Shown here in pieces: positions 26,350 to 49,916 of a stretch of 64,000 nucleotides of DNA. Location of the stretch: the IMG/VR virus record IMGVR_UViG_3300036790_000396, positions 32,001 through 96,000 of that record; one strand, given 5' to 3'. The DNA comes from a virus. A program made the position numbers and the translations under genes. Position 1 is the stretch's first letter. Every line of letters begins with the position of its first letter. Below the pieces are notes generated by a model that saw only the letters and a program-made list of their open reading frames with translations, was not told the DNA's origin and did not search any database.

Positions 26350-29300
26350 ATGACCTCCGGCTTCTGGGACATCGTGCAGGAGGCCGACGGCCTGCCGATC
26401 CCCGACATCATCACCTTCACCACCGGGCCGCAGTGGCTCGCGCGCCCGAACCTGTACCCGCGGCAGGCCACCCTGCTGAAGGTGATCTTCCTCCGCTCGG
26501 ACCTGTTCACCGACTATGACCGCCAGGTCATCGGCGAGTGGATCGCCGCGTTCGGGGCCACCAACCCCAACGCGGGCGGCGACAACAAGTTCGAGGCGCA
26601 CACCAACGGAATCCAGCCTGACATCTACGAGCGCATCGAGTGGCTGCGCGCTCACGGCTACCGCTGGTTCAAGGAAGTCATTCTCGCGATCGGCCGCCGC
26701 GGGTCGAAGGGCTATACCTGCGCGATTGCCATGGCCTACGTGCTGTACCACTACCTGGCCAAGGGCAACCCGCAGGACTACTACGGGATCATGGACGACA
26801 AGGTCATCCAGGCGCTGATCTTCGCCGGAAAGAAAGACCAGGCCAAGGCCAACCTGTGGGGCGACCTCAACAATGTCATCACCGCGGCGCCGTGCTTCAC
26901 CGATTACATCTCGACTCCCCAGGCCGAGTCGCTGACCGTGTTCGCCCCGCATGACTTCGCCCGGATCGAGGCGATGGCCGCCCGCGGCATCCGGTCGACG
27001 AAGGACATGGCCAGCTTCGCCGTGCTGCCCAAGGAGTCCACGCTCCTGTCGAGCCGCGGCCCGACCACCGCGATCCTCGGTTTCGACGAGGCCGCGCACG
27101 TCAAGAACTCCGGCACGTCCCGCTCGTTCGGCGACGTCTACAACGCCGCCACCCCGAGCCTCGACCAGTTCGGCGCCGACGCCTTCATCTGCATCCCGTC
27201 CTCCACCTGGGAGATGACGGGCATGTTCTACGAGCTGTGGGTCCAGTCCCTGTCGGCCGAGCCCGACGCCTCGGGCGCGATGCATGGCATCTACGCCAAC
27301 AAGCTCATGGTCCAGCTGGAGTCCTGGGCGCCGTACATCGACTGGGAGCGCGCCCCGGAGCTGCCGCTGTTCCCGCCGGATTTCAGGGGGGACCTCGGCG
27401 AGTACTCCGACGGCAACCTCCCCCGCCTGCGGGAGATGCGCGGCCCGATCCAGTCCTATGACGATGAAATGCGCCGTCTTGAGCGTGCTAATCCCGATAT
27501 GTTCGCAGTCGAGCGCCGATCTCACTGGGCGACCAGCCTCGACGCCTACCTGAACCCGACGAAGGTCGACGAGATCTTCCATCCCTGGGCGGAGCGCAGC
27601 CCCCGGTTCGGCCCTCCGGAGATCAGCGCCCAGCAGCGCGGCATCATGACCATGAGCTACCGCGCCCACGGGGATCCGAGTAATGTCGGAGCGCGCTTCG
27701 GATTTGCAATTGCCCATAAAGAGCCTGATGATAGCGGGATGCAGCATTGCCTGGGCGCTGAGACGCGCTACCTCACTGACAAAGGAGTCAGGACCCTCGG
27801 AGAGACGGCAGGGACGGTGCAGAATGTTCTCACCTCTGATCATGAGGGAGGATTTACCGGAAAATGGGTTAAAGCAGAAATAAAGTCATTCGGGGTACAG
27901 AAGCTTTACAAGGTTACTCTGCAGCGCAACAAGAAAGAAAAGGTAATATACGCCACTGAGGGTCACCGGTGGATCGGGAGGACTGCCGGGCGTCCTGCTT
28001 CAGTGAGAAGTACTTCTGGCCTGAAGAGAAGCTCCCCGTTCTCCCTGACCGCTACTTTCACGCCCGGATGTGATGCCGGACTGACTCCGGATGAGGCCGG
28101 GATACGGCACGGAATGATGACCGGGGACGGAACCGTCTACGATGGTTACGGAGTGCTGCGGCTATTCGGTAAGAAAATAGAGCTTTCCAGGTATTTCGAG
28201 GATCTTGCGGGATATAAGCCCCGCTACTCATCTCTTCCCAGCGGATGCCCCGCCCTGTTCATGAACGGGATCGGCCGCCTCCTGACGAGAAAGAGCCCTC
28301 CCTTGCAGGAGGAAAGCGACGAGTATCTCCTCGGATGGCTATGCGGCTACTTCGCTACAGACGGGAACATTAACGAGCAGGGACAGGCGAGGATCTCATG
28401 CGCTGACAGGAACATCCTGGAAGAAACTCGCAGCATCGCGCAGCGCATAGGAATATCCTGCTACGGAATATCCGAAACAGTACGGCGGGGACTCGGGAAA
28501 GAAAATACCTCTCTTTACACGATTGAATTTATCGTCCCGACTCTTCCGGGAGCATCGTTCTTCATAAGATCGGATCAGAGAGAACGTTATGAGGCCGCCT
28601 GGGTAGAGAAGAAAAAGAAATTCCTCCAGGTTTCCTGGCGAGTGCGCTCCGTGGAGCCCACGGACCGTTGCGAGGAGGTATTCTGCGCCGTCGTGCCGGG
28701 AACGCAGGCATTCGTGCTGGAAGACAACGTGCTCACGGGAAACTGCGTTTTCGACCTAGTTAAATACTGGGACCCGGCCGACTACGAAGATCACTTCATC
28801 GACTATGACGAGGTAACCGACTGGATATTCACTAACGGAGTGAAGCCGTTCTGTCCTTCGCTCCTGACGTTCGACCAGTTCAATGTTCCGGCTACGGTCC
28901 GCGTGCTGCAGAAGAAAGTGCGGCAGGAGCGCCTGCCGAAGCAGGTAATGGTCGACGAGCGCGTCGCCACGCGGGATAACAGCTGGCGTGCCTACGAGAC
29001 GTTCAAGGGCGCCGTGAACATGGGATTCGTGCACGCGCCCTTCCATGAGGAAGCGCGTGACGAGCTGAAGTTCCTGCAGAAGAAAGCGGGAGCGCCGGTC
29101 GTAATACCGCCTGATTCCGGCCCTGTCGTGACAAAAGACATAGCCGACTGCATGGCCATCATCGTCTACGAGCTGATCGGCGACCAGATGGCCATGCTGG
29201 ACGACACCCTGGGCGGCATGCTCCCGGTCGGCGCGATGCACACGTCCGATACGGACCCCATGAACCGCTTCGATCCCGGCATGTCCGCTGCCAACCCTTA

Positions 29301-29448
29301 TGCTAACTCGCTCGGAGGGATGGCGCTGTCCCGCGGCGGCAGGCCGGGCCCCCAGGGGCAGTTCCGTCCCGGCACCGTCGGCACCCGCAGCTCCCAGTCC
29401 CGGATGCCGGGCCGCTCCGGCGCGTCGTTCCGCCGGGGGCGCTCGTAG
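26350..29448 (+). CDS. terL: Terminase large subunit, intein-containing
   Basis: PRQ Q-motif, Walker A IGRRGSKG, Walker B LGFDEAAH, PSS coupling motif, nuclease AHGDPS, TFDQFN, KDIADC. Confidence 0.9.
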   Translation: MTSGFWDIVQEADGLPIPDIITFTTGPQWLARPNLYPRQATLLKVIFLRSDLFTDYDRQVIGEWIAAFGATNPNAGGDNKFEAHTNGIQPDIYERIEWLRAHGYRWFKEVILAIGRRGSKGYTCAIAMAYVLYHYLAKGNPQDYYGIMDDKVIQALIFAGKKDQAKANLWGDLNNVITAAPCFTDYISTPQAESLTVFAPHDFARIEAMAARGIRSTKDMASFAVLPKESTLLSSRGPTTAILGFDEAAHVKNSGTSRSFGDVYNAATPSLDQFGADAFICIPSSTWEMTGMFYELWVQSLSAEPDASGAMHGIYANKLMVQLESWAPYIDWERAPELPLFPPDFRGDLGEYSDGNLPRLREMRGPIQSYDDEMRRLERANPDMFAVERRSHWATSLDAYLNPTKVDEIFHPWAERSPRFGPPEISAQQRGIMTMSYRAHGDPSNVGARFGFAIAHKEPDDSGMQHCLGAETRYLTDKGVRTLGETAGTVQNVLTSDHEGGFTGKWVKAEIKSFGVQKLYKVTLQRNKKEKVIYATEGHRWIGRTAGRPASVRSTSGLKRSSPFSLTATFTPGCDAGLTPDEAGIRHGMMTGDGTVYDGYGVLRLFGKKIELSRYFEDLAGYKPRYSSLPSGCPALFMNGIGRLLTRKSPPLQEESDEYLLGWLCGYFATDGNINEQGQARISCADRNILEETRSIAQRIGISCYGISETVRRGLGKENTSLYTIEFIVPTLPGASFFIRSDQRERYEAAWVEKKKKFLQVSWRVRSVEPTDRCEEVFCAVVPGTQAFVLEDNVLTGNCVFDLVKYWDPADYEDHFIDYDEVTDWIFTNGVKPFCPSLLTFDQFNVPATVRVLQKKVRQERLPKQVMVDERVATRDNSWRAYETFKGAVNMGFVHAPFHEEARDELKFLQKKAGAPVVIPPDSGPVVTKDIADCMAIIVYELIGDQMAMLDDTLGGMLPVGAMHTSDTDPMNRFDPGMSAANPYANSLGGMALSRGGRPGPQGQFRPGTVGTRSSQSRMPGRSGASFRRGRS
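27748..28743 (+). mobile_element. Intein (332 aa) with LAGLIDADG endonuclease in the TerL nuclease domain
   Basis: H|CLGAETRYLT...ATEGHRW...HGMMTGDG...WLCGYFATDG...EEVFCA...NVLTGN|C; lower GC. Confidence 0.93.
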
Positions 29449-35800: not shown

Positions 35801-36674
35801 CGGCACCGCCGTGGTCTTCCATTCCCGCGTTCCGGACCGTGACGACATCGACGAGCGCGCCGGCGACGACATGGGCGTCTACCACCCCTACTCGCATGAC
35901 GAGGCGGAGGTGCCCGTGCGCTCCGGGGCCGGGATCGGCCTGACCGGCGTCTCCTGGGCACCGGTCCACGACGAGGACGACCCGCGCTCGTGGGACGGCC
36001 CGCAGTACGAGCACCACGAGTTCGGGGAGCCCGACTACCGTACGGCAGCCCGGTCGGGGAGCATGCCGCACCCGGACTACGATCCGTCGGAGGAACTGCC
36101 CGAGGGGCGCGGGATCTTCTATCGGGCGCACGACATGCGCCGTCCGCTCGATGAGCAGCACGCCCGCAGCGCCCCGCTCAGCCACGGCTACCGCCCGTTC
36201 CAGCAGAACCCCGTCTTTTCTGTCGGCCAGCGCGGCTACTCCTCTTTCCGCAGCCCGCACATGCTCAGCTCGTACATGGACGAATACGAGTGGGAGCCCG
36301 CGAAGGACCGGGAAGCAGTTGCCTTCCACGGGAAGCAAGTCGGGGTCGGGGAGGATAACGAGCCGCTCGTAGTCCCGGCCCCGGATCCGCATTGCTGCGG
36401 GCGCGTGATTCATTCCAGGATGCCGTGGGAGGAGTTCGAGCGGAAGACGTGGCCCTCGCACCTTAATGACCCGGAGTCGGAGGAGCACGGCTACCATGAC
36501 GTCGGCGCGCTCCCGCAGCCGTTGCGCCAGCCCTGGGCACCGGAACGCTGGGTGCCTGGTGCCCGCCCCTGGGAAAGCCCGGGGGACCGGTCGGAGCGCC
36601 GTCACCAGGAGAAGGAAGACCGCCGCCGCGAGCGCCGGGCATCCGCGCTGACCCTTACGGAGGCCATGGCATGA
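29856..36674 (+). CDS. Giant polyvalent protein (about 2270 aa): multiple ART-like domains, CXXCXGXG Zn finger, zincin peptidase, GNAT acetyltransferase
   Basis: GTG 29856 with AGGAGG; HEAGH...HGPEF; RRKGLATAM; FHGS...HFA...GHDGIVY.N.FEG; LHRG...HWS...EAEV; three YR.H...GYS.F...DGEP repeats. Confidence 0.85.
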   Translation: MTTDILAHFEDEGVRKAGGRPLQPLPVEDGLYYRAHHKDAPFGREHASTQNIGEPPSPEMAKYWEPKPGYSAFWHPHHLRQYLDEMGWSDADDMKGRRVLMFRGAPVGEGADGEPRVVPHADKPEASMSPGQFRRRLEITPEPGTRWDDHTWGQGPSGQVADDGYRTILGAARPGRGQETCGCCQGNGEHPDGTECDRCDGFGLMHRGDDAPYCPGQPQPRRRHWREGAVIPEPKWDPERYENEGRSYSSEMLDKGHEWKRQVRRSLSLGTMTNDEARESGYHGQGHDQGDDGSARLSWEPLPQRLYHVTTDLAGVREHGLKSRDELGQQRGGGHGLGGGEDDTISFTGDPGTARGILSSLHEFHRALTGRLSPQAMWDMARSGTGAARPYHEGIAENYRSGWKDGDPLPLRLRHVLNGREGERELATREDMERRKGPGWEPEGEPLIGDHMFSEWSRPASEDSRRESAASLYKAFAFHRMHAGGREDPLFFATDTKSLARKDPRNFAIVHASPRPGARGYRVHSLGEWRTAAGDAVSVHHYERLRDKGQQREAVRVSDAPPPDHAEYCGPGARTVWLHEDDRDPRCSECGHRVADPATGKPPARTRERPPRQWGAEVVNRQRAKRAQGARGHWSPMDWAAENPHRAVTRIAQDSLAEQYPDLARTMQLPDEHDIYQESMEGNRLLRRMLGRNGYPQREAARAFVMPHDHPEAGVSQPVLDEDGQPGVALLRSRFTPLILAHEAGHLLHVHHAGIDAGPYSHRHGEEAGSRMPDEAMHGPEFSRHFAGALDAISPGAGSDLLRHRADAAALVSNYRRRFHSLPPVEASMPEPDYDPSEPLPQGRGLFWRLHDPDDRPLTEPHARSRRVDWDWLKPGETDPDTGLKNVHIQTGLRGFSAFQSPHQLHRYMEEYGWSEAGPDGEHAWPDSSQVVAFHGKQVGRGDDGEPLVIPHPNEKCCGRIIHSGMDWDEFEHHVQRTMGSDTSSSPWNQQHAHENSPEIRSIERHHHPLRRGRFYPRALRGGRFYPHEGALMRHFAAGPEDYGMDHRPDTGGPPLHDLTDSSETDWSLPADYYDRMHEYSQNYDADNRYGIAESERKVRRYRGQPDKRVRVWRAAPAVNPESRNGKRGEINHGDWIGLSRQKAVMEAAKENDPPSGSLPADHPRRYHIWSAMVPAKHVRNADGDLTEWGYAGPDIKDITHFSEYCSHRARAKREGILRHFAGDSPATGHYEEPTGGSLYPVRHVFTAVHPDGTRADLRYVLSKSGRKGAMDSRFHIPAGYGESLGVPLARAARRMHPQARITGMPGVGQDWDSLLPSVTSLHRGLTLRLPQPDHSFLHDDSVPKSRRAARLMELMAGHPSMHWASRRGLAAAEEDFGNHEFRRPGDTQVMLSADAPRREDVETDPERLLAQDVHEHAAPHWEVPLREGAPVSVTSVRWRQGSGPWSKHLFRGGRPFTAARQREGDEREWNGYTLRYRTEDQGERKPRHVIEAFPADGTVAGRLTWYGATGKIHRIETAGPEDARGESGDGFGNGADHRRKGLATAMWDWSQEMTPRARHSGDQTGMGTEWARSLRRKGARRDPALPNPHTGGDEWFHGSPWKFGQFGENSSTLEFEDDPHDTSHWNALLGHHFAASHKTAEEFAGAEHSADPDGSYDDGEPARNIIHARLHLTNPKIYASEHDMDQEAYEHEWKAGNHHDLHHEPELRDDEWGGEYDPDYDERPPTYQYAGHGDRMRSQEESDPSYWNQSRSYHPYATGWLNTHPDKYSIAQRFRDRLKARGHDGIVYGNEFEGSQIGKGDKHHLAAIAFHPHQVDVTQRHSGPECIEPEAAGRSWPGSQQHPLPGMPRVSVLRHFASGYFDEVNWDEIHPEIAGEPLHRGVGVTLPGHLHRFVHDRALPRQQRAEALLDYLGDSEKHGYGRDSQAGLGTHWSMRRDTAENFAENAAKHEGGGEPHPDYGMIPGEREHAVYTPPPRPASRPGTAVVFHSRVPDRDDIDERAGDDMGVYHPYSHDEAEVPVRSGAGIGLTGVSWAPVHDEDDPRSWDGPQYEHHEFGEPDYRTAARSGSMPHPDYDPSEELPEGRGIFYRAHDMRRPLDEQHARSAPLSHGYRPFQQNPVFSVGQRGYSSFRSPHMLSSYMDEYEWEPAKDREAVAFHGKQVGVGEDNEPLVVPAPDPHCCGRVIHSRMPWEEFERKTWPSHLNDPESEEHGYHDVGALPQPLRQPWAPERWVPGARPWESPGDRSERRHQEKEDRRRERRASALTLTEAMA
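32883..32937 (+). repeat. Imperfect 30-bp-period tandem duplication (LRRGRFYP / LRGGRFYP)
   Basis: ctgcgccgcggccggttctacccgc ... ctgcgcggcggccggttctacccgc. Confidence 0.8.
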
Positions 36675-39600
36675 GCAGCCGGCAGGCAGCGTGGACGCCG
36701 TCCGAGCGCATCTTCGGCCGAACATGGGGCCTGGATCACCGGCTGTTCAGCGGGGACCGCATGCGCCCGGAAGTCCGCAGGACACTCCTGGCGCGGCTGG
36801 ACAGCGCGCTGGAGCCCGTCCTCGGCCCGCAGTGGCAGGTCTTCACCCGCGCCTACCTCATGGGCTCGCAGGCGTCCCGCTGGACCTCCCCGGAGCTGGA
36901 GGGCAACGGGGACCTCGATGTCATCCTCGCGGTCGACCCGGGTCATCCCCACGAGGACGCCGGGCACATCAACGGCATCCTGCGGCGCACGTTCGACCGC
37001 GGGGACTGGCACCCGCCGTTCGATCCCCGGGGCACCTACGACCTGACGGGCTACGTCAACCCGCTGGCCTGGAACGTCACGGACATCAGCCCCTACGCTG
37101 CCTATGACCTGACCGGAGACCGCTTCGCCGTGGACCCCCCCGACCTTCCCGACTGGTCCCCGGACCAGTTCCCGCAGGGAAAGGCCCTGCTGCAGGAGGG
37201 CCGGGCTCTCGGTGCCCAGGCCCGCGCGCTGCTGCGGATGCCCGAGCCGTTCCGCTCGCAGGAGGCGCGGCGGCTGTGGGACTACATCCGCTCCGGCCGC
37301 GACGAGGGATTCGCTCCCGGCGGGCTGGGCTGGCAGTCTGCCGGGAATGTACTCGAAAAGATGCTCGACCAGATGCCCGGCAACCTCGTCGGCCGCCTGA
37401 AGGAAGCCGTCTACGGCAGGCAGGTCACTGCCGGCGCCTACGACTGGGCTGCTGACGAGGGGCCGTACACCTGGGAGGAGATCGGCGACCGGTACCCGCG
37501 CGTCTACGGCGAGGACTCCGGCGACAGCGAGGGAATCGGCTGGGCGGCCTCGCACCTGTACCACGACCGTCCCGGCCATTCGCAGGACGACAGCACGGGC
37601 GAGGAGTCCGCCGACGACATGGAGTTCCACCCGCGGACGGTCGACCCGGCCCGGATTGACTACATGCGCTCCGAGCCGGGAGACCCGCGCGTGACCCGGG
37701 CCCGCAGGGGATATGAGAGCCAGCAGCCGGAAAAGGTCCCGCCGCTGATCCTGGTGCACCGTAACGGCGTGTTCATGCCAGCCGACGGCCATCACCGGGC
37801 AGAGGGCGCGGCCAGGGCCCGCAAGCCGGTGCGTGCCTACGTGGCCTATTCCCCGCACGATGCCGAGCCGTTCTCCGACGGGGAGCGGGGCCCGTTCAAC
37901 GGTGCCGGGACCAGGGAACGGCCCCCGCTGACGGACCAGGACGGCCGGCAGTTCCGGATATCCTACCCCGGGTTCCCGCATACGGCCGAGACGGAGATCC
38001 CGCCGCGGGAGGCGTCGCTCCTGAGCCACTTCGCGGCCTGGGAGGACGAGTACGACGATGACCATGGCGACGGCCAGGATCCCGATCGCTACGTCGAGTG
38101 CGACCAGGGCCACCGCCACTGGGGCGCCGCCGGGGCCGCTGGCCTCCTGATCCGCCATAAGCGCCCCTCGGGCGAGCACGAGTACCTGCTGCAGAAGCGG
38201 TCCCCGTACGTGCAGCACGGCGGCACCTGGTCCACGCCCGGCGGTGCCCTGGGCCACGGCGAGACGCCCGAGGAAGGCGCGGTGCGCGAGGGCGAGGAGG
38301 AGCTTGGCGGGCTGCCCGACGATCTCTGGCACAGCCACACGAGCCATGACGAGCACGGCGGATGGAAATACTCGACTGTCGTCATGGACTCCCCGCGCCG
38401 GTTCGAGCCTGAGGGCGGCGGCGAGAGCGACTGGGAGCACGGCGGCCACGGCTGGTTCACGCCGGAGGAGATGAAGGACCTCCCGCTGCACCCCGGATTC
38501 GCGGCGAGCTGGGACCGGGTCCGCAAGTCCGGGGCCCTGCGCCAGGCCGTCGTCGATCCCGCCAGCCTGCCCCGCGACCAGCTGAACGGGATCACGCGTG
38601 CCCGCGTCTACTACCCGCCGGGCCAGTCGGAGGACCGGCGCCTCCTCGACGTGGCGAGCAGGCCGCGCCCCGGCACCCGCGTGTGGCGCGGCGAGCTGCG
38701 CCCGGAGGGGGAGAACCCGGGGAACGTGCAGTCGGTCGGCATGCACTGGACCGTGAACCCCAGGGCGCTGCTGCTGCGCGGCAATGAGCCGGGGTGGAGG
38801 CAGCACGTCTGGCAGGGCGTCGTCGATGACTTCGGCTCCCAGGCGTTCCCCCGCAGCCATGATGTGTGGAGGGCGGTGCGCAGCGGCGACGGGGAGCACG
38901 AGATCCGTTTCCGCCCCGGTGCCCGGGTGCGCCTGGAAGGCGCCTACGTGTCCGGCAGCGGCACGGGGGACCGCCGGGAGCCGATGGGGATCCTGGATCC
39001 CCTCCACCCGGAGAGTACCGACCCGCGCTGGGAATGGCACCCGATGGACCGGCCCGTGACCGTCCGGCACCGCCCCGGGGCGCCCGGCTCTCCCTCGCGG
39101 GGAGGTGCTGACTACGCGTCCCTGGGCATCAGCCACGAGGGCGTGGCCCACGATGACTCCAACCCGTACCTGATGGTGGCCGTCGTCCCGCCCGAGCATG
39201 TCTCCGCCGCCCTCGCGGAGTCGATGGAGCCCCTTACCCGCCATGACCCGGAGCCGCCGGAGGAGCATCACGTCACGATGCTGTACCTGGGCAAGGAGAA
39301 GGACCACACCCCGGCGCAGCGCGCGAAGCTGCCCGGCCTGGTCCGGGAGTGGGCGTCCTGCCAGCAGCCGTTCACCGTCCGCGTGCAGGGCGCGGGGACG
39401 TTCGCTAACGAGGGCGAGCACACCGTCCACGCCCTGGTCGACATGCCCGACGGCCATCACCTCCGCACGTCACTGGAGGAGCACCTCGCCGGCCATGGCA
39501 TCTCGTGGCCGCGGGATCACGGGTTCGCCCCGCACCTGACGCTGGCCTACTCGCAGCAGCCGGTCCGGTTCCTGCCCAGTGTCCCGCGCTCGGAATGGAC

Positions 39601-39679
39601 CGCCGGCCAGGTGCACTGGTGCCGCGGGAAGGACTGGCAGCCTGTCCCGCTGGGCCGCGCGCCTGCTAAGGTTAATTGA
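36671..39679 (+). CDS. Multi-domain protein: Pol-beta nucleotidyltransferase, ParB/Srx, NUDIX, ART-like, 2H phosphoesterase
   Basis: MGS...GDLDV; ADGHHR; GGALGHGETPEEGAVREGEEELG; VWRG..MHWT..EHEI; HVT (39269) and HLT (39533). Confidence 0.88.
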   Translation: MSSRQAAWTPSERIFGRTWGLDHRLFSGDRMRPEVRRTLLARLDSALEPVLGPQWQVFTRAYLMGSQASRWTSPELEGNGDLDVILAVDPGHPHEDAGHINGILRRTFDRGDWHPPFDPRGTYDLTGYVNPLAWNVTDISPYAAYDLTGDRFAVDPPDLPDWSPDQFPQGKALLQEGRALGAQARALLRMPEPFRSQEARRLWDYIRSGRDEGFAPGGLGWQSAGNVLEKMLDQMPGNLVGRLKEAVYGRQVTAGAYDWAADEGPYTWEEIGDRYPRVYGEDSGDSEGIGWAASHLYHDRPGHSQDDSTGEESADDMEFHPRTVDPARIDYMRSEPGDPRVTRARRGYESQQPEKVPPLILVHRNGVFMPADGHHRAEGAARARKPVRAYVAYSPHDAEPFSDGERGPFNGAGTRERPPLTDQDGRQFRISYPGFPHTAETEIPPREASLLSHFAAWEDEYDDDHGDGQDPDRYVECDQGHRHWGAAGAAGLLIRHKRPSGEHEYLLQKRSPYVQHGGTWSTPGGALGHGETPEEGAVREGEEELGGLPDDLWHSHTSHDEHGGWKYSTVVMDSPRRFEPEGGGESDWEHGGHGWFTPEEMKDLPLHPGFAASWDRVRKSGALRQAVVDPASLPRDQLNGITRARVYYPPGQSEDRRLLDVASRPRPGTRVWRGELRPEGENPGNVQSVGMHWTVNPRALLLRGNEPGWRQHVWQGVVDDFGSQAFPRSHDVWRAVRSGDGEHEIRFRPGARVRLEGAYVSGSGTGDRREPMGILDPLHPESTDPRWEWHPMDRPVTVRHRPGAPGSPSRGGADYASLGISHEGVAHDDSNPYLMVAVVPPEHVSAALAESMEPLTRHDPEPPEEHHVTMLYLGKEKDHTPAQRAKLPGLVREWASCQQPFTVRVQGAGTFANEGEHTVHALVDMPDGHHLRTSLEEHLAGHGISWPRDHGFAPHLTLAYSQQPVRFLPSVPRSEWTAGQVHWCRGKDWQPVPLGRAPAKVN

Positions 39680-39681
39680 TA
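39664..39681. promoter_or_regulatory. Operator copy TGCTAA-ggttaa-TTGATA
   Basis: Overlaps the upstream stop and the ATG at 39681. Confidence 0.55.
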
Positions 39682-39941
39682 TGAACGACCTCAGCATGAA
39701 GCCCGGCATGTCCCGTGAGGACCGTACCGCGATCCGCCAGCGCATCGAGGACGAGCTGGTGCAGGCGGCCCGCGCCCAGGCAGTCCGCCTGTCCCGCTCC
39801 CCGCGCTGTGCCGCTGTCGCCCCGGAACTGCCGCGTCCCGGGGGAATGACCGGGGACCAGGCGAAAGCCGAGCACGCGAAATGCCTTGCCGAGATGTCAG
39901 GGAACGGGTGCCTGTGCCCGTGCCATGACCCGGACGAGTAG
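39681..39941 (+). CDS. hypothetical protein with C-terminal CLCPCH motif
   Basis: Start ATG 39681 or the next in-frame ATG. Confidence 0.65.
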   Translation: MNDLSMKPGMSREDRTAIRQRIEDELVQAARAQAVRLSRSPRCAAVAPELPRPGGMTGDQAKAEHAKCLAEMSGNGCLCPCHDPDE

Positions 39942-39942
39942 C

Positions 39943-40185
39943 ATGCCCGGTCCTGAGACGGGGACCGGCCGCTACCGGGACATCGCCGGCGGCCAGTCCG
40001 CTGCCGCCGTCCCGGCCGGTACCCGCAAGGTGGTTGACGGGCTGCGAGAATACCGGGCGTGGCGCGGCATGCGCGATCCCCTCGTGAAAGCCGCTCTCGC
40101 CGCTGGCATTCCCGTGCACCGCATCTGCGAGGAATCCGGTCTCCACAAGGACACGGTGCGCCGCATTAAGGACGGTCACAGATGA
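39943..40185 (+). CDS. small HTH DNA-binding protein
   Basis: RDPLVKAALAAGIPVHRICEESGLHKDTVRRI. Confidence 0.7.
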   Translation: MPGPETGTGRYRDIAGGQSAAAVPAGTRKVVDGLREYRAWRGMRDPLVKAALAAGIPVHRICEESGLHKDTVRRIKDGHR

Positions 40186-40415
40186 AATCTGCGGAGTACC
40201 CTCAGAGAAAATGCCGGGAGCGAGTCCCCGGCGACTTTCAGGATTACCTGTGCCCTATCCGCGAGCACCACGCCGGGCCGTGTGCCGCATTCGAGGTCCC
40301 GCGTTCGGTCCAGGCCCGCGATAAATGGGAAGAGGCTCATCCCTCCTGGGAGAAGATGAGCGTATTCGACGATCCTTTCGCCGAGGCTGAGAAGATCATG
40401 AAGGGGGAACAGTGA
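40182..40415 (+). CDS. hypothetical protein
   Basis: ATGA overlap; C..C..H..C motif. Confidence 0.7.
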   Translation: MKSAEYPQRKCRERVPGDFQDYLCPIREHHAGPCAAFEVPRSVQARDKWEEAHPSWEKMSVFDDPFAEAEKIMKGEQ

Positions 40416-40561
40416 TCACTCTTCACCTATGGTCCGTGATCAGCATCGGGACCGCCGGCATTCTCGTCGGCATTATTCTCGGTGCCTGCGCGCTGATGGC
40501 CGGGATCCGCTCCGGCGAGCGCCGCCGTACCGTGCGGGCGCGAAGGGAATGGACGCCGTGA
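40412..40561 (+). CDS. 49-aa single-TM membrane protein, not in the ORF track
   Basis: GTGA overlap; MITLHLWSVISIGTAGILVGIILGACALMAG followed by a basic tail. Confidence 0.6.
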   Translation: MITLHLWSVISIGTAGILVGIILGACALMAGIRSGERRRTVRARREWTP

Positions 40562-41178
40562 CCGGCAGCCGCATCCTGCGGCCGGTGCCGCTGTCGCATC
40601 GCAGGATACTCGGCGCCTATGCCTCCGCGGCACTCGTCTTCTCCGAGAAAGAGCTGGACGACGATGATCCCGGGACTGAGCGGCGCAAGTTCCTCGCCGA
40701 GTTCAGCACGACCGTGCTGTCCGGGCGGCGCATCGAGCAGCATCCCTCCGTCACCCACCAGGTGCCCGCCTCGTGGTGGCAGCATCTCAAGGACGACTGC
40801 CTCCCTGCCTGGGCGCGGCGGCGCTGGCCCGTCCGCTACCGCGAGCTGAAGACCACCCTGCTGCTGGAGCAGGACATTCTCTTTCCCTATGCCGATTTCG
40901 TTCCGCCGCCGCCGGACCAGTTCGGCCGTCCCGTCCTGTGGGAGAGCCTCTCCGCCGAGAGCGGCCCGGGGATCCTCCAGCAGGGAGAGGGCCGGTTCCT
41001 GGACCGGCTCGACGTCCTGCACTACTTCTACCTGTGGCTGGAGCGGACGCGCCCGGCAGGCACGCGCGTCGTCCGGGACCCGTACGAGATCATCGCGCAG
41101 TTCTTCGAGTGGCTGGAGCTGTCGGGCGTGAACCCGGACGAGCTGGTGTGCCGCGGCTACGAGAAGAGGCCGCTGTGA
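40549..41178 (+). CDS. hypothetical protein
   Basis: Start ATG 40549 or GTG 40558. Confidence 0.7.
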   Translation: MDAVTGSRILRPVPLSHRRILGAYASAALVFSEKELDDDDPGTERRKFLAEFSTTVLSGRRIEQHPSVTHQVPASWWQHLKDDCLPAWARRRWPVRYRELKTTLLLEQDILFPYADFVPPPPDQFGRPVLWESLSAESGPGILQQGEGRFLDRLDVLHYFYLWLERTRPAGTRVVRDPYEIIAQFFEWLELSGVNPDELVCRGYEKRPL

Positions 41179-41801
41179 GCCCGCAGGAGGAAGACGCTGC
41201 CGTGGGAATGGCCGCGCTGCTGGCCGATCCCCGGCTGCGGGAGATCAGCAGCTGCCGCGACGGCGGTTTCGTTCCCTCCTCGGGCCCTCCCCGCGCTCCC
41301 GTCATGCTCGTCGGCGAGGCGCCGGGCGAGGAGGAGGCCCGGCAGGCAAAGCCGTTCTGCGGCCCGTCTGGTGCTTTCCTGGACGAGATGCTGGCGCTGG
41401 CCGGGATCGAGCGGCGCCTCTGCTACGCCGCCAATGTCGTCCCGTTCCGGCCGCCCGGCAACCGGACGCCGTTCCCGTCCGAGATCGGCGCGTGCATGCC
41501 CAGGCTGGAAACGGAAATCTCCTTCGTCTCCCCGGTCCTGATCATCGCCCTGGGCGCGACCGCGTGGAAGGCGCTGGGCGGCCCGCGCAGCGTCACGGCG
41601 ATGCACGGGCAGAGGACGCAGTACCGCCAGGGTGCCGGTGCGAATATCCTGGTGCCCGTGACGCGAACGGCCCCGGCTGAGTTCAGCTGCTCGCTCATGT
41701 GCTCCTACCACCCGGCCGCCGCCCTGCGCGACCGCGTCCGCGACAGGGAGATGCGCGAGGACTTCACGGAGCTGCGGAATATCCTGGAGAGGAAGAAATG
41801 A
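41175..41801 (+). CDS. Uracil-DNA glycosylase, family 4-like
   Basis: VGEAPGEEE...PFCGPSG, NVV.FRPPGNRTP, LGATA, YHPAA. Confidence 0.9.
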   Translation: MSPQEEDAAVGMAALLADPRLREISSCRDGGFVPSSGPPRAPVMLVGEAPGEEEARQAKPFCGPSGAFLDEMLALAGIERRLCYAANVVPFRPPGNRTPFPSEIGACMPRLETEISFVSPVLIIALGATAWKALGGPRSVTAMHGQRTQYRQGAGANILVPVTRTAPAEFSCSLMCSYHPAAALRDRVRDREMREDFTELRNILERKK

Positions 41802-41959
41802 TTCCCGTCATCGTGTCTGCCGTGCTCCTGGTCGAGACGGTTGCCAACACCGTCGTCTACTTCTGGCAGAAGTCAGTGATCTCCCGCCTGAACCGGGAAA
41901 CCGGGGGCCTGCGGGAGCATATCCGCGAGCTGCAGGAAACGATGGACCGGCAGTGGTGA
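41798..41959 (+). CDS. small membrane/coiled-coil protein
   Basis: ATGA overlap; hydrophobic N-terminus. Confidence 0.6.
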   Translation: MIPVIVSAVLLVETVANTVVYFWQKSVISRLNRETGGLREHIRELQETMDRQW

Positions 41960-42471
41960 CTGACAGCATCATCTCGCAGCCGGGCGAGCCGGGCGAGCCC
42001 GACGACACCGTCGAGACCGAGTGGTGTCCCCTCGGCCAGTGGCCGTCCGACATCGCCGCGGTGCGCCGCACGATAGAGGAATGCGACGAGGTGATCCCCC
42101 TCCTGGAGAACGCCTCCGACGACTTCGCCGTCCACACGGCCCTGGACTTCGTCCGGACCGTCCGCGGGGAGGCCAAGGCCGCCCTGGCCATGGGGCTGCT
42201 GGCCATGCACCGCATCGAGCTGCCCGAGCGCGGGGACTGGAAGACGCCCCAGGAGATGATCCAGGCGAACCTCCGCAAGGTCGCTGAGGACGCGAAGGCC
42301 CGCCAGGACATCCGCCCGGAGGACGTCGGCATGAAGCAGCCGCCCGCGTCCCGTGCCCGCCTGCGCTCCAGCCTCGGAAGTAACGGAGGCGATGGCGATG
42401 GCAGGGATCACGGGCAACCTCGACACGGACACGGTGTGCCCGGCATGCCACCTTCCGGTCCCTCTCGGTGA
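41956..42471 (+). CDS. hypothetical protein
   Basis: GTGA overlap; strong codon bias. Confidence 0.65.
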   Translation: MTDSIISQPGEPGEPDDTVETEWCPLGQWPSDIAAVRRTIEECDEVIPLLENASDDFAVHTALDFVRTVRGEAKAALAMGLLAMHRIELPERGDWKTPQEMIQANLRKVAEDAKARQDIRPEDVGMKQPPASRARLRSSLGSNGGDGDGRDHGQPRHGHGVPGMPPSGPSR

Positions 42472-42847
42472 CCCTCTTGCTTACGGGCGCCACCTGGCAT
42501 GCCAGGAGGCCCGGGTTCCCGACGGCACCGGGGACGCTGTTGCTGCCGCTGACGCTGCCCTCGGCCGCGGCGGCCGGGTCAGCATCTCCAAGACCCACCT
42601 GCGCGCTCTCGCCCTGGCAGCATCGGTCTCCCCGGTGCGCCATCCCGACAGGGGCACCCGGGGAGTGAAATGGTACGGGCGGCTGCCCGGGTGGTCAGCC
42701 GCCCGCGTGGAGCAGGGCCTTGCCCTGGATGAGGTCGCCGGCATGTGGCTCGACGCCCTCGACACCGGCCGCACCCCGCCCGTCAGCCACGGGCACCTCC
42801 GCATGATCGCGGAGGCGGCCCGCATGGCGCTAGCTGCCCCCGCCTGA
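42392..42847 (+). CDS. hypothetical protein with CPAC...HLAC Zn motif
   Basis: GGAGG RBS before ATG 42392. Confidence 0.65.
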   Translation: MAMAGITGNLDTDTVCPACHLPVPLGDPLAYGRHLACQEARVPDGTGDAVAAADAALGRGGRVSISKTHLRALALAASVSPVRHPDRGTRGVKWYGRLPGWSAARVEQGLALDEVAGMWLDALDTGRTPPVSHGHLRMIAEAARMALAAPA

Positions 42848-43369
42848 CTCAGCTTCCGCGATGTGCGCCGCGATTGCGGGCAGCACGTCCGACCGGAACC
42901 ACTCGCCTGCTTTCTTCCCGCTGCGGCCCAGGTCTTCGAGCCCCTCGAACTGCCGGCGGATCTCGCCGGTGAACTCGTTGCGCCAGCACCACGGGACATC
43001 CCCCTGGCTGAGCCACTGCCCGAACTGGGCGACGAGGCGCGCGTGCAGGTCCCCGCATCCGCCTTCCGGGCCCTGGTAGCCGTAGCCGGTATCGATGCTG
43101 ACGCTGATCCAGCAGGGAGGATCAGGCTCGCAGCTGCTGTCCTCGCCGGACACGGCGACGGCCCCGGCGGCTGTGTACGGCTTCTCCCCCTGCGGGTCCC
43201 CGTAGGTGATCACCCACGCGCTGAATCCCTGCCCTGGCTCGTTAACCAGGCCGTCGGGATCCTCCCGGACCTTCGCAGTCTCCGGGATGCCGGCCAGCTC
43301 GTTCATCTTCGCGTGGGCGGCACGGATGCTCACCTTGTCCTGCACGTAGATCTTGGTAGACAGTGTCAT
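42830..43369 (-). CDS. hypothetical protein
   Basis: Last gene of leftward island 1; GAAGGA RBS. Confidence 0.8.
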   Translation of the reverse strand: MTLSTKIYVQDKVSIRAAHAKMNELAGIPETAKVREDPDGLVNEPGQGFSAWVITYGDPQGEKPYTAAGAVAVSGEDSSCEPDPPCWISVSIDTGYGYQGPEGGCGDLHARLVAQFGQWLSQGDVPWCWRNEFTGEIRRQFEGLEDLGRSGKKAGEWFRSDVLPAIAAHIAEAESGGGS

Positions 43370-43812
43370 GATCGTGTTCCTTCTCCGGTGATGCGGGGGA
43401 TCCGGCGCACCGTGGCGACCGCCGAGTGCTCCCGGAACCGCCAGCCGTCTGCGTGCTCGAAGCCGCCGGCGGCGAGCAGGGCGTCCAGGTCGGACCGCGG
43501 GCTGGACGCGGCTCCGCCGCCTTCCGGTGCCTGCGACCTGGTGTAGGCGAGCCTGCCGTCAGTGTCGGTGATGTCAATCTTGCGGTAGAGGGGGTGCTCC
43601 GTGAAGTACCCGAACGCCTGCAGGGGACGGTCGGCCCTCGCAGCGGCGCGCTTGTCCAGGGCCGCGATCAGCGCCATGGTGAACTCCGGGCGCCAGCCCT
43701 CGAACGCGGTCTCGTATTCCTCCTCGATGTAAGCGAGGACGGGCATGTTTCTTTCCTGCGCCTCGCTGATGAGGAAATCGGCGGAGGCGCCTTCCGGGAT
43801 GCTTCCGGTCAT
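43366..43812 (-). CDS. hypothetical protein
   Basis: AAGGA RBS, ATG 43812, ATGA coupling. Confidence 0.7.
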   Translation of the reverse strand: MTGSIPEGASADFLISEAQERNMPVLAYIEEEYETAFEGWRPEFTMALIAALDKRAAARADRPLQAFGYFTEHPLYRKIDITDTDGRLAYTRSQAPEGGGAASSPRSDLDALLAAGGFEHADGWRFREHSAVATVRRIPRITGEGTRS

Positions 43813-43822
43813 GAGGGGGTCC

Positions 43823-44374
43823 TTACCGTGAGACCGTGGGAACGGGAATGTCGGGCGATATCTCCCGGCCGCCGCCGTCACCCCAGCGGCACCACGGGCA
43901 CCAGGGCTGCAGGCGCTTGTGGATCTCGGTGATCACGACGGAAGAGAAAGAGCAGGCGAACATGACCGCGAGGCCGATGCTGTCGGCCCGGTGATCTTTC
44001 ACGAGAAAGAGGAACACGAGCCATGCGGCGGTTACCGGGACCGGGAAAAAGCGCCAGCGGGAATGAGAGAACCGGAGCGCCCACCGCCGCCGGGAAGCTT
44101 TCTCCTGGGCGTTAACCGGAAGCTTTCTCAGGCAGCGCTCGCACAGCCGGCGCGAGTGCGCGAAGACATCAGCGAACATGGATGCCAGGAACGCGTAGAG
44201 CACGACGTCGCCGGGGATGTAGAAAGGGCTCGCGGAACTGAGGGGAAGGACCGCCTGCACGACGACGACGGCAAATCCCGCTGCCATGAAGCCCGGGCAG
44301 TAATGGCCGCCCCACATCAGGAGCCGGTCCAGCCAGGGGGGAAGCTCGCGGCCTCCCGGTGCCAGCACGGGCAT
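43823..44374 (-). CDS. multi-pass membrane protein
   Basis: About 4 hydrophobic segments; H...CERC and H...CPWC motifs. Confidence 0.75.
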   Translation of the reverse strand: MPVLAPGGRELPPWLDRLLMWGGHYCPGFMAAGFAVVVVQAVLPLSSASPFYIPGDVVLYAFLASMFADVFAHSRRLCERCLRKLPVNAQEKASRRRWALRFSHSRWRFFPVPVTAAWLVFLFLVKDHRADSIGLAVMFACSFSSVVITEIHKRLQPWCPWCRWGDGGGREISPDIPVPTVSR

Positions 44375-44646
44375 CAGCGGTTTCCTTTCCTCAGTCTCGC
44401 GATGATCTCCCGGCCCTCATCCGTGAGGCGGTCCGTGAAGACCAGGATTCCCCGGCGCTCGGTCAGGCCACCCCTTTCCAGGCGCTGCAGCAGCGTCATG
44501 GCTGCCATCGGCCCGATGACGGCATCTCCCCTGTCGTGCTTCATCGAGCGCACGAGAACGGTTTCTTCCTCGCCCTCGCTGCGGGCGACGGCGCGGAGCG
44601 CCTGGAGCATCCTGGCCGTGATGACGGTCCCGTTGCGGCTTCTCAC
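44374..44646 (-). CDS. small winged-helix-like protein
   Basis: TLLQRLERGGL...LTDEGRE; GTGA coupling. Confidence 0.55.
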   Translation of the reverse strand: MRSRNGTVITARMLQALRAVARSEGEEETVLVRSMKHDRGDAVIGPMAAMTLLQRLERGGLTERRGILVFTDRLTDEGREIIARLRKGNR

Positions 44647-44870
44647 AGCGCTACCCGCACGATCCGCGTCTTCACCCAGTACCAGCCGTCGAAGTTCCAC
44701 TCGACCTGGCCGCCGGCGCAGTGGTACCGCTCGTGCGCCTGCGCCTTCAGCTGCACCTGGCGGATCGTCTCGTCCGGTCGCGTGTCGCCCGACCGCAGCA
44801 GGTGCTCGCGCAGCTCCCCGCGCGTGAGGCGCACCAGGTGATCCTCCGGCACGCTGATGGTGCTTCCCAT
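44643..44870 (-). CDS. hypothetical protein
   Basis: AAGGAG RBS. Confidence 0.7.
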   Translation of the reverse strand: MGSTISVPEDHLVRLTRGELREHLLRSGDTRPDETIRQVQLKAQAHERYHCAGGQVEWNFDGWYWVKTRIVRVAL

Positions 44871-44983
44871 TACTTCTCCTTCAGGATGCGGTCGCTCAGC
44901 CGGCTGAACACCATCATGGCGAGGGTGCCGCCCGCAGCGACAAGAGCGAGGACGGCGAGGATGCGCGCGCTTCCTTCCCTTTT

Positions 44984-45005
44984 ACTGTACCAATGTTTAT
45001 TGATA
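44984..45005. promoter_or_regulatory. Operator TACCAA-tgttta-TTGATA with leftward extended -10 TGgTACAGT
   Basis: Divergent junction. Confidence 0.8.
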
Positions 45006-45065
45006 AAAGCTAGTCATTGCCGAAGCCGCCCCGGAAGGACAGAAGACCACCGTGAGGGAGAACGC

Positions 45066-46574
45066 ATGGACGAGCAGCGCGGCGCCCTGCTCCGGGCTAT
45101 CACCGCGGCGCGCACCGGGGGCGATCAGGCCGCAGCCGTCGCTGCCCTCGACCGGCATGACCGGATGCAGCGCCAGGCGGCAGCCGGAGACCGGGAGCTT
45201 GACCTTTCCGCGACCGCTGTCAGGCAGGCGCTGGCCCCGGTCGCGGTGCACGAGCACCACACCGCCGCCACCGACTGGCTCGGCGAGATCCCCGAGCCGT
45301 CCCCGGACTTCCGGACGGCGATGATCGCCCAGGCCGGCTCCTGGTACCGCAGTGTCCCCGCCGAGGTCCGCGCCGACGGCGAGGAGTTCGCCGAGCAGGC
45401 GCGGCTGCGCGCCTACACCGCCGCCTCCTCCTACGGCGACGCCGCGCTCCCGGCCCGGCGCGAGTTCCTGCAGGCGGTCGGCTACCTGTCCCGCGGCGCC
45501 GCATCGGGCCTCCCGCAGGTCGACCAGGTCATCGACCCGAACAACCAGCCGTCCCCCACGCCGTACCCGACCGAGGTCTTCGACAACTTCGCGCCGCAGC
45601 AGAACGATTTCAACGCGCCGGTGGAGTCGCCGGACCACCAGAGCCAGGTTTCCAGCGAGCAGGCCCCCATGCTGCAGCAGGTCCAGCAGCAGGACGGGTC
45701 CGGATCCGGGTTCGGCAGCGGCCCCGAGCTGCCCGACCAGCACGACACGGCGATGGACACCCAGTACGGCTACGCCGAGGTGCCGCTGGGCCCTCCCGGC
45801 GTCATCCCCACCGTCCCCGCGGCCACCGATCAGGGCGGCGCGATGCCGCAGGGCCAGAGCACTCCCAACCCCGTCGCCGGGTCGGACCAGGTCGCCGATG
45901 CGGAGCCTCTCGATGACGAGGACGTGCAGCCGGGAGCCCGGAGCGCGTCGCTGACGCCCCCGGACTGGCAGGGGTACCGCTGGCGCACCGCCATGGCGCA
46001 GCCGCCGCTGGACGCCCCCTGGCACGCGCGCTGCGGCTCCCTGCACTGGCCCACGGACCCGTGCGGGAGCCAGGGGCACACCGCCGCCGTCTCCTGGGCG
46101 CAGACCGCCGAGACGTTCGCCCGGACCGCCTCCCTCCAGGCAGGGGGCTTCGCGGAGGGCACGCAGGTGATGGCCGCCGCCCGGATGAGCGTCCCCGCCG
46201 TCGCCTCGCACCACAACCAGCTCCTGGGCGCCTTCACCGCCGCCGCCCGCACCGAGGACGAGGTCCACTGGCTGCACGGCTACCTCGCCGCCGTCCGCCC
46301 CCTCCTCGCCTCGGCCGGCAAGTGCTCCGGCTGCGGCGGCTCCTGCCGCCAGGACCAGGACAAGTGCGAGGCCTGCCGGCAGAAGGAGAAGACCGCTTCC
46401 CTCCGCGCGCTCGCCAACCAGTACATCAAGCAGCGCGGGGACAAATGGGTCATCCTGCAGAAGGGCACCGGCAAGGTCCTCTCCCACCATGACTCGCAGG
46501 AGAAGGCGGAGGCCAGCTTCCGTGCCATGATGCAGTCCAAGCACGGCTCCCGGGGGCGCCTGGATTTTCAGTAG
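45066..46574 (+). CDS. Probable head/prohead-associated low-complexity protein
   Basis: GAGGGAG RBS; Pro/Gln/Asp-rich; CSGC..CEAC; recurrent R/K-x-A linkers; lies between terL and the portal gene. Confidence 0.75.
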   Translation: MDEQRGALLRAITAARTGGDQAAAVAALDRHDRMQRQAAAGDRELDLSATAVRQALAPVAVHEHHTAATDWLGEIPEPSPDFRTAMIAQAGSWYRSVPAEVRADGEEFAEQARLRAYTAASSYGDAALPARREFLQAVGYLSRGAASGLPQVDQVIDPNNQPSPTPYPTEVFDNFAPQQNDFNAPVESPDHQSQVSSEQAPMLQQVQQQDGSGSGFGSGPELPDQHDTAMDTQYGYAEVPLGPPGVIPTVPAATDQGGAMPQGQSTPNPVAGSDQVADAEPLDDEDVQPGARSASLTPPDWQGYRWRTAMAQPPLDAPWHARCGSLHWPTDPCGSQGHTAAVSWAQTAETFARTASLQAGGFAEGTQVMAAARMSVPAVASHHNQLLGAFTAAARTEDEVHWLHGYLAAVRPLLASAGKCSGCGGSCRQDQDKCEACRQKEKTASLRALANQYIKQRGDKWVILQKGTGKVLSHHDSQEKAEASFRAMMQSKHGSRGRLDFQ

Positions 46575-46603
46575 CCGCCGGATGGCAGCCCGCTGCCGCC
46601 GGC
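46562..46603 (+). other. Putative programmed -1 ribosomal frameshift signal
   Basis: In-phase G GAT TTT (46562-46568) just before TAG; hairpin 46577-46603; -1 frame open to 47101. Confidence 0.65.
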
Positions 46604-47101
46604 CCGCTCAGCCGCGAGGCCGTCTCCCGGGAGACCGAGCATCACGTCACCCAGTACGACCCCGAACGTCTCCGCGGCCACCTGGAGAGCGAGCACTCCA
46701 GCTACGGACTGCTGGGGCGCACGGTCCCCAGCGATCCCGCAGGGATGGAGCAGGCGCACCGCAGCGCGCACGAGCGCGAGGACCCGTTCTTCGGCGCGTG
46801 GCACGGGAACACCGAGCCCGCTGACCCGCAGGACTTCACGGCGATGCACGCCGAGCACCCCGACGAGGAAGACCACTACCGCGCCTACGAGACCGGCGAG
46901 CACCAGCCCCACGGCCTCGGCGCCCACCTGCTGAACGATCACGGCTACACGCCGCAGGCGGTCGAGGAGTCCTGGAAGGGCTACGACCCGGACGAGCCCC
47001 GCGACCCGTCGCTGGGCTTCCACCGGCTGCGCGAGATGCACCGGCAGGCGCACGACTACGAGCACGACGTCTACGGCGTGAACCCCTGGAGGAGCCAGTG
47101 A
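46568..47101 (+). CDS. His-rich -1 frame extension of the 45066 protein (ORF track starts it at 46745)
   Basis: 59 sense codons with no start codon upstream of ATG 46745; contain the SREAV linker and LRGHLESEH motif. Confidence 0.65.
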   Translation, partial: SVAAGWQPAAAGPLSREAVSRETEHHVTQYDPERLRGHLESEHSSYGLLGRTVPSDPAGMEQAHRSAHEREDPFFGAWHGNTEPADPQDFTAMHAEHPDEEDHYRAYETGEHQPHGLGAHLLNDHGYTPQAVEESWKGYDPDEPRDPSLGFHRLREMHRQAHDYEHDVYGVNPWRSQ

Positions 47102-49026: not shown

Positions 49027-49030
49027 CAAG

Positions 49031-49065
49031 GGAAAAGCCCCGCCGTGAAGCGGGGCTTTTCCTTT
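49031..49065. terminator. Bidirectional intrinsic terminator
   Basis: GGAAAAGCCCCGC / GCGGGGCTTTTCC stem with A and T tracts, between convergent genes. Confidence 0.9.
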
Positions 49066-49137
49066 CGCAAGACGGGGATCTCGCATTACTGATGGGGTCT
49101 TACTGCCCTGCCAGCGTAGGACGCGGCGGGGGAATGG

Positions 49138-49668
49138 TCAAGAACGGGGCTCCCCGTCCTCACTGTGGTCCGCTATCCACTGGGCGTGCTCCGCCACGCG
49201 GGTGGCGGTCTCCAGGTCGGCCTCGCGCTGCTCCAGCTCCGCCTCCTGCCGCTTCAGGCGCGTCTCGTGCTCGCGCAGCGCGATGGCCGCCCGCGCCTGC
49301 TTCTCGTCGGCGCGGTCCCGCTGCCCCCTGACGATCAGGGCGAGGAACAGGACGAAGACGAGCCACAGCGGCCAGACGGCGCCCGTGAGCACGCTGATGC
49401 CGACCGCCTTCTCCGCGGTGTGCCCGCCGTAGCAGGAGTCCTGCTTGCCTGCCGGGACGTGGCCGTCCTGGTCGAGCCCCAGCCTTTCTATGTGCCGGGC
49501 CCATTTCTGGTCCCGGCCGCTGAATTTCCACGCGTCCTCGCGGTCGCTGCGTGCGTAATGGACCTCCCCGCACAGCGGCACCCGGCTGGGGCGCGCGGTG
49601 CCGTAGGATCTCCGTGCGATCACGGTGAACCCGGCGAGGTAGACGGCAAGGATGATGATCGCGGTCAC
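49138..49668 (-). CDS. membrane protein with C-terminal coiled coil
   Basis: AGGAGG RBS, GTG 49668; two hydrophobic segments. Confidence 0.75.
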   Translation of the reverse strand: MTAIIILAVYLAGFTVIARRSYGTARPSRVPLCGEVHYARSDREDAWKFSGRDQKWARHIERLGLDQDGHVPAGKQDSCYGGHTAEKAVGISVLTGAVWPLWLVFVLFLALIVRGQRDRADEKQARAAIALREHETRLKRQEAELEQREADLETATRVAEHAQWIADHSEDGEPRS

Positions 49669-49916
49669 TGTTCCTCCTGAATAATCATTACGTTCCGGAT
49701 CCGCGGAGGTTCCCGTCTCTGCAGCTTCGGCGTGAACTCGCGAAGTCGTGCAGCCTCTTCCGGGTACTTCTCGTCCCATGCCTCGTGCATGGCGTGCCTG
49801 ACTGTGCAATCCTCCGCGTGAGAGCTGATCTCGCCGGAATATCCCTGCCCGCACTCCCCGCAGCAGGGATTCCCGTGCCCGTCTGCGGGCCACTCGCCCG
49901 CGACGCCGGAGTTCAT
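49665..49916 (-). CDS. small Cys/His hypothetical protein
   Basis: CCGECG...H.EDC; ATGA coupling. Confidence 0.6.
   Translation of the reverse strand: MNSGVAGEWPADGHGNPCCGECGQGYSGEISSHAEDCTVRHAMHEAWDEKYPEEAARLREFTPKLQRREPPRIRNVMIIQEEQ

Follow-up and report, generated by a model that had tools for sequence, protein, structure and literature searches.

Polyvalent proteins are regarded as toolkits with which large phages deliver a first strike, and we know of almost none that has been tested biochemically. Those described by Iyer et al. in 2017 contain ADP-ribosyltransferase (ART), GNAT, nucleotidyltransferase (NTase), ParB and 2H domains, and early-acting, virion-delivered roles were predicted for them (PMC5512222); ART and Nudix genes were subsequently reported to lie in clusters with those for terminase and portal (Iyer et al. 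2022, PMC9503650). For a phage ART that is injected with the DNA, the precedent is T4 Alt (PMC9503650), and Acb1 is a phage 2H enzyme able to destroy cyclic-nucleotide immune signals (PMC9117128). Here we analyse P0001, a protein of 1002 amino acids (aa) encoded in a single open reading frame (ORF) at positions 36671-39679, plus strand, of a 64,000-bp window that spans bases 32001-96000 of one 146,944-bp contig (IMG/VR record IMGVR_UViG_3300036790_000396) and has a GC content of 70%. An earlier note on this DNA had read the gene as a fusion of NTase, ParB, NUDIX, ART and 2H phosphoesterase domains, and all five are present in that order, the ART as a predicted fold, although Pfam detects only the NUDIX and 2H domains (modules C and E below) and the other three were assigned by Foldseek and motifs.

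We conclude that P0001 is a polyvalent protein, built of five autonomous enzyme modules (A to E) with poorly structured linkers between them. A phmmer search of 1.8 billion representative proteins returned 3607 proteins at E up to 0.001, and the matched stretches resolved into five blocks (aa 1-255, 256-460, 461-630, 631-828 and 829-1002), each of which occurs independently in other proteins. Across a local set of 186 proteins of 211 to 3306 aa, comprising 184 relatives, P0001 and the upstream-encoded protein P0002, the five modules appear in many orders and combinations; the domain census of 19 long relatives gave counts of 11 for GNAT, seven for NUDIX, six each for Arr and 2H and two for ParB. 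Searched as DNA by megablast, the P0001 gene had no match in the phage collection, and tblastn against phages and plasmids gave single-module matches only, at 29-41% identity: module A matched Streptomyces phages BRock and LuckySocke and one Streptomyces plasmid, and the NUDIX module matched actinobacterial plasmids. BLAST and hidden Markov model (HMM) searches of the rest of the genome revealed no further copy of any module.

P0001 fits the published class as a newly described instance, because of its domain number, its mobile-element origin and its shuffled architectures, with delivery supported by context only. Members have two to fifteen mostly enzymatic domains, and P0001 has five modules with separate assignments; its 147-kb contig is of phage origin, encoding a large terminase (TerL), a portal, PrimPol and DnaE; and shuffling is seen both in the domain orders of the 186 proteins and in a ParB-for-Arr swap described below. 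Like the proteins of 2017, P0001 combines several unrelated effector domains of the same repertoire in a giant polypeptide, in shuffled arrangement and near packaging genes. Unlike them, it has no detectable MuF, MPTase, RNA polymerase (RNAP) or lysozyme anchor, and its modules A, B and D go unrecognised by Pfam, the ART-PolyVal family included. The NTases of that study are also minimal and mainly from Firmicute conjugative elements, whereas module A carries an additional helical domain and is of actinophage origin.

The gene and its translational coupling to the 2288-aa ORF upstream (P0002) are real. Its ATG is the earliest in-frame start codon past the preceding stop, it follows a GGAGG ribosome-binding site, and it overlaps the TGA of the upstream ORF as ATGA, which bears out the coupling proposed in the earlier note; moreover, GC content at third codon positions (GC3) is 0.89 across the whole frame, as is typical of coding frames in a 70% GC genome. 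Scanning 25.5-42.5 kb for promoters and terminators yielded nothing informative. High-GC genomes contain many long spurious ORFs, and the fusion might accordingly be an artefact, either an assembly chimera or a chance read-through of several genes. We regard this as extremely improbable, since the GC3 value holds along the whole frame, an independent metagenome contig carries the same architecture at 96-99% identity, and dozens of relatives have the same modules fused in other orders.

The proposal we favour, and think probable, is that P0001 is a five-enzyme polyvalent effector, produced alongside the head proteins and injected, that serves host takeover and the blunting of defences. By analogy with the published class, a multi-enzyme effector that handles nucleotides and NAD would be a reasonable expectation (PMC5512222, PMC9503650). 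In this scheme P0001 would be expressed together with the head genes and enter the host along with the DNA, or would at least act in trans, and it may be cleaved at its linkers. Module D would transfer ADP-ribose from NAD+ onto a host macromolecule, as T4 Alt does, while module C would hydrolyse ADP-ribose, NADH or ADP-ribose-derived signal molecules, and module E would open phosphodiester bonds of the 2',3'-cyclic or 2'-5' kind, either at RNA ends or within signalling nucleotides. Module B may be an NTP-dependent nickase or an NTPase, and module A may act by nucleotidylating a protein or the end of an RNA. Overall this would bring about host takeover together with a blunted nucleotide-based defence.

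Modules C and E are the most readily recognised. Module C scored 52.3 bits against PF00293 (E 7.9e-14; cut-off 21.1), and in its closest match its aa 470-620 aligned with residues 4-156 of the 167 of M. smegmatis RenU (PDB 6uuf) at E 1.4e-25. The Nudix box is intact (G525-E531-R539-E540-E543-E544), following the GX5EX7REUXEEXGU pattern with G at U position 541. Mycobacterial RenU cleaves ADP-ribose, FAD and NADH, and not NAD+ (PMC4401782); module C resembles it in the near full-length alignment and the conserved box, and differs in being embedded in a phage multidomain protein, without the PknG/L13 context. Module E matched PF13563 at 8.4e-12 (45.8 bits, cut-off 27) and PF02834 at 1.3e-7, and the sole addition from NCBIfam was TIGR02258 (ThpR), at 1e-10 and under its cut-off. 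It shares the 2H fold and two HxT motifs with the LigT/ThpR 2',3'-cyclic phosphodiesterases 1iuh and 5h7e, its sequence matches in the PDB (1.4e-11 and 1.6e-5), and both motifs, H867-x-T869 and H955-x-T957, are invariant in 46 homologues. The earlier note had likened this domain to Acb1. The likeness stands for the 2H fold class and is otherwise loose: the link is an analogy of fold class only, because the sequence similarity is to LigT/ThpR and, when its sequence was searched against the PDB at E up to 10, LigT-type chains alone were recovered and no Acb1 chain.

Module D is predicted to have the ART fold. Modelled alone, it gave a predicted local distance difference test (pLDDT) value of 81 and a predicted template modelling (pTM) score of 0.81; Foldseek found nothing significant in the PDB, and although the fold scores were weak, the matches listed were almost all ARTs. 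Across 43 homologues the invariant residues are R673, which lies within VWRGE of strand 1, then H692-W693, and finally E742-x-E744 with R746 after it, the middle motif being H692-W693-T694 and not STS. This residue pattern, read from the alignment, is that of the R-S-E clade of ARTs and adds weight to the predicted ART assignment beyond the weak fold scores. T4 Alt is an R-S-E-type ART encoded by a large phage, as is predicted of module D, but sequence similarity between the two is undetectable, and module D is one of five fused modules. The Pfam Arr-ms matches in relatives were considered as the identity of module D and rejected, as they map to a different module. In BFVD, module D has ART-like fold matches among the unannotated proteins of isolated actinophages, namely Gordonia phages Pupper and Stormageddon and Mycobacterium phage Myrna, and among multidomain proteins of phages Stubby and Bigswole whose sole annotation is 'ParB-like nuclease domain protein'.

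Modules A and B were modelled together with AlphaFold2 (AF2; mean pLDDT 74). In Foldseek, module B matched sulfiredoxin and the N-domains of CTP-binding ParB proteins with probability 1.00, at a root-mean-square deviation (rmsd) of 3.3-3.8 A over about 82 residues, and its DGHHR motif, including the active-site R376, is invariant in 20 homologues. With DdrB-like ParB domains it shares the core fold, the conserved Arg in DGHHR and the Asp that ends the preceding strand. In contrast to partition ParB, it lacks the helix-turn-helix (HTH) and dimerisation domains, and Pfam ParB_N (PF02195) had no match to P0001 at E up to 1. The profile search of module B against the PDB was swamped by NUDIX columns from long homologues and says nothing about ParB.

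Module A is a putative NTase, on fold and motif support only. A profile search against the PDB gave no match, and its Foldseek matches, to CCA-adding enzymes, CdnE and ANT(9), were weak; its neighbours in the protein atlas are viral clusters named nucleotidyltransferase, one with PF01909 on 58% of members. On the NTase fold it carries the hG[GS] and [DE]h[DE]h motifs of the Pol-beta superfamily, and G65-S66 and D81-x-D83 are invariant in 115 homologues. No third catalytic carboxylate was located, strand 3 having conserved T126 and N130 and no conserved acid. Two residues set P0001 and a nearly identical relative, P0003, apart: F152, a position at which 113 of the 115 homologues have W, and R207, at which 112 have H. 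Position 135 is D in 104 of the 115 sequences and N in P0001; D135N was considered as an inactivating change and dropped, since other homologues vary there too. The view in the earlier note that all catalytic motifs look intact is slightly overstated for the NTase.

These assignments also bear on what the enzymes might act upon. One alternative is an RNA or tRNA repair kit, in which the 2H module heals the 2',3'-cyclic phosphate ends that anticodon nucleases produce, the NTase restores 3' ends in the manner of CCA-adding enzymes, and the NUDIX and ART-fold modules remove the by-products 2'-phosphate and ADP-ribose. The LigT/ThpR type of module E, the CCA-adding enzymes among the weak fold matches of module A and the fact that phage gene neighbourhoods for RNA repair can combine 2H and Nudix with NAD-using enzymes (PMC9503650) are all compatible with it, and we nevertheless hold it to be improbable. 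Another alternative is a kit that inactivates anti-phage small molecules, such as actinomycete aminoglycosides or rifamycin-like compounds: Arr-like ARTs, GNATs and an ANT(9)-like NTase mirror three classic antibiotic-modifying chemistries, the domains recognised most often in the relatives are Arr-ms and GNAT, and module A has weak Foldseek matches to ANT(3'')(9) and AAD(9) over about 277 columns. However, those matches have probabilities of only 0.18-0.23 and an rmsd of 13-14 A, P0001 itself has neither Arr nor GNAT, its module D is of the toxin-like R-S-E type, and no evidence for a drug substrate exists, so that this explanation appears quite improbable.

The relationship to the closest relative shows how such a protein changes. 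P0003, of 917 aa (JGI sample 3300036818), is 96% identical to P0001 over aa 1-254 and 99% over aa 447-1002, and by BLASTP its middle stretch is unrelated; aa 261-341 of P0003, within that stretch, match Pfam Arr-ms, the rifampin ADP-ribosyltransferase family, at 4.4e-6. The metagenomic contig that encodes it (L002) is 97-99% identical in DNA to window positions 36588-49347 (blastn), apart from the ParB cassette. The left junction of the swap lies at the end of module A, the right one 22 nt ahead of the LLSHFA codons. This replacement of ParB by Arr between otherwise 97-99% identical phages gives direct evidence of in-frame module exchange among very close relatives. Elsewhere in the aligned region, L002 has 545 extra bases (its positions 8773-9317) at window 44967/8, inside the large ORF 44625-46574, and lacks window positions 47539-47735, inside the large ORF 46825-49026; these indels may be further gains or losses of modules.

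The LLSHFA peptide belongs to a linker motif, h-x-x-H-F-[AE], with 48 matches in the 186 proteins against 4.35 expected in shuffles, an enrichment of about ten-fold; 47 of the 48 lie outside modules A-E. In this genome the motif is confined to the two giant genes, with six copies in P0002 and one in P0001. Consequently, the claim of the earlier note that the same linker motifs separate the domains applies to one junction of P0001, that between modules B and C, and not to the others. Other boundary peptides recur in the relatives: [RH]-T-A-A-[WF]-x-P before module A, with which the P0001 start codon coincides (M-SSRQA-AWTP), RKSGA-x-x-K-[TA]-A after NUDIX, and G-I-x-R-E-[AS] after module D. No long DNA repeats were found at the linkers inside the two giant genes, the matches being of about 27 nt at 81% only. 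Because these matches are short and imperfect, recombination at conserved linker DNA is not demonstrated. A more far-reaching proposal would make the post-terminase genes a hypervariable effector locus, diversified through in-frame exchange of entire enzyme cassettes, in which short conserved linkers such as h-x-x-HFA act both as recombination joints and as cleavage sites, so that a packaged polyprotein releases its enzymes after injection; the NUDIX and 2H modules would then destroy ADP-ribose-derived or cyclic-nucleotide immune signals or, with sister Arr, GNAT and NTase modules, neutralise host anti-phage small molecules. We consider this unlikely.

Whether P0001 travels in the virion has to be judged from its surroundings. 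P0001 and the giant gene before it follow TerL directly and share its strand, and the portal comes 22 kb further on; in the RedWattleHog genome only about 7 kb separate terminase and portal. On a 165-kb soil-metagenome contig (L001) whose inteinless TerL is 60% identical to the present one, the genes next in line are again giant: three of them, overlapping one another, encode 1618, 1363 and 945 aa and have matches to Arr, NUDIX, 2H and ParB. The giant-gene array is conserved in position and not in content. It is solely this position, directly after TerL and upstream of the portal and in the same order in the relative, that points to packaging; the counter-defence role proposed in the earlier note is a plausible prediction. 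The same five-enzyme protein could instead remain unpackaged, as a cytoplasmic accessory enzyme made with the late genes or from a promoter of its own and acting in the producing cell, for example against abortive-infection systems late in the cycle. Such genes are known from early as well as virion-linked contexts (Iyer et al. 2022, PMC9503650), a fusion to MuF, portal or peptidase domains was not found in P0001 or the 19 long relatives, and accessory minus-strand genes occupy the same terminase-to-portal interval. Set against this are the conserved order downstream of TerL and the precedents for packaging offered by T4 Alt and the P1 Dar proteins (PMC5512222, PMC9503650), and we regard the unpackaged alternative as possible but rather doubtful.

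Several observations weigh against a packaged effector of the kind we favour. Pfam found no MuF, portal, capsid-targeting or peptidase domain in P0001 or in the 19 long relatives, which leaves packaging without evidence from fusions. A minus-strand accessory island with a C5 methylase sits between P0001 and the portal, so the terminase-to-portal region is not purely structural. Module A has two lineage-specific changes at near-invariant sites, a third carboxylate was not identified in it, and none of the five modules has a known substrate.

The upstream partner, P0002, is almost blank in Pfam. An Arr/DUF6098-like unit occurs in it three times, and it further has a PHROG 'ParB C-terminal domain' match at aa 1049-1216 (6e-17) and a HEAGH zincin-like motif without a family match. 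Towards its C-terminus the identity to L002 is 84% at 35949-36446, no match is found at 36447-36587, and identity is 97% from 36588 onwards; because of this drop and subsequent jump, the final module of P0002 looks like another diverged or exchanged allele.

Judging from its homologues, the genome is that of a 147-kb large soil actinobacterial phage distantly related to Bixzunavirus and Stormageddonvirus, and no more than distantly to isolated phages in general. At about 1e-60, tblastn linked TerL to terminases in Rhodococcus phage E3 and in Gordonia phages Stormageddon and RedWattleHog, and the TerL insertion (about aa 469-786) is absent from the TerL of L001. Neighbouring genes encode a DinG-type helicase, an SNF2-type helicase, a PrimPol/D5 primase-helicase and a DnaE-type polymerase, whose identity to the closest homologue from a phage is about 34%; also encoded are a resolvase, an exonuclease and an intein-bearing RecA/UvsX-like protein. 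LAGLIDADG-type, intein-like insertions occur in four essential-looking genes, those for TerL, the RecA/UvsX-like protein, the pre-portal protein and the portal. The minus-strand block that breaks the plus-strand terminase-to-portal region extends over 49913-57025 and includes a DUF6205 protein and, at 55979-57025, a C5 cytosine methylase ORF that resembles a fragment. Coordinates of the features are collected in Table 1.

Table 1 Features of the P0001 locus and of neighbouring genes, in window coordinates
Feature	Position	Strand	Basis and remarks
Whole gene P0001, five-module polyvalent protein	36671-39679	+	ORF, translation, GC3, 184 modular relatives
GGAGG ribosome-binding site	36659-36663	+	7-nt spacer before ATG; read from sequence
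ATGA overlap of the P0001 ATG with the TGA of the 2288-aa ORF	36671-36674	+	Read from sequence
Module A, putative Pol-beta-type NTase fold (aa ~30-150) and helical bundle (aa ~160-250)	36671-37435	+	aa 1-255
Module B, helical N-part and ParB/sulfiredoxin core (aa ~319-400)	37436-38050	+	aa 256-460; DGHHR 372-376
Exchangeable cassette (aa ~250-442)	37417-37995	+	579 bp; 324 bp encoding an Arr-like ART in L002
Linker LLSHFA, junction of modules B and C	38018-38035	+	aa 450-455
Module C, RenU-type NUDIX hydrolase	38051-38560	+	aa 461-630; Nudix box aa 525-546
Module D, predicted ADP-ribosyltransferase fold, R-S-E type	38561-39154	+	aa 631-828; R673, H692-W693-T694, E742-H-E744
Module E, 2H phosphoesterase, LigT/ThpR type	39155-39676	+	aa 829-1002; H867-V-T869, H955-L-T957
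Polyvalent ORF P0002, 2288 aa, coupled to P0001	29808-36674	+	Six h-x-x-HF[AE] linkers, HEAGH motif
Large terminase (TerL) with LAGLIDADG intein	26350-29448	+	tblastn, PF14528; directly upstream of the polyvalent pair
RecA/UvsX-like recombinase with LAGLIDADG-type insertion	18330-20516		
1227-aa pre-portal protein with LAGLIDADG-type insertion	57782-61465		
Portal with intein-like LAGLIDADG insertion	61462-64000		40% identical to Bixzunavirus portals

As the polyvalent concept is already published, the value of P0001 is that of a good test case and not of a new principle. Its five modules have sharp limits and evident catalytic residues as targets for mutation, and modules A, B and D represent large phage families that go undetected by standard domain libraries. 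Moreover, the ParB-for-Arr swap amounts to a natural experiment, in which near-identical phages differ in one protein by a single module; the pair could reveal what a single module contributes, and it shows directly how such genes diversify.

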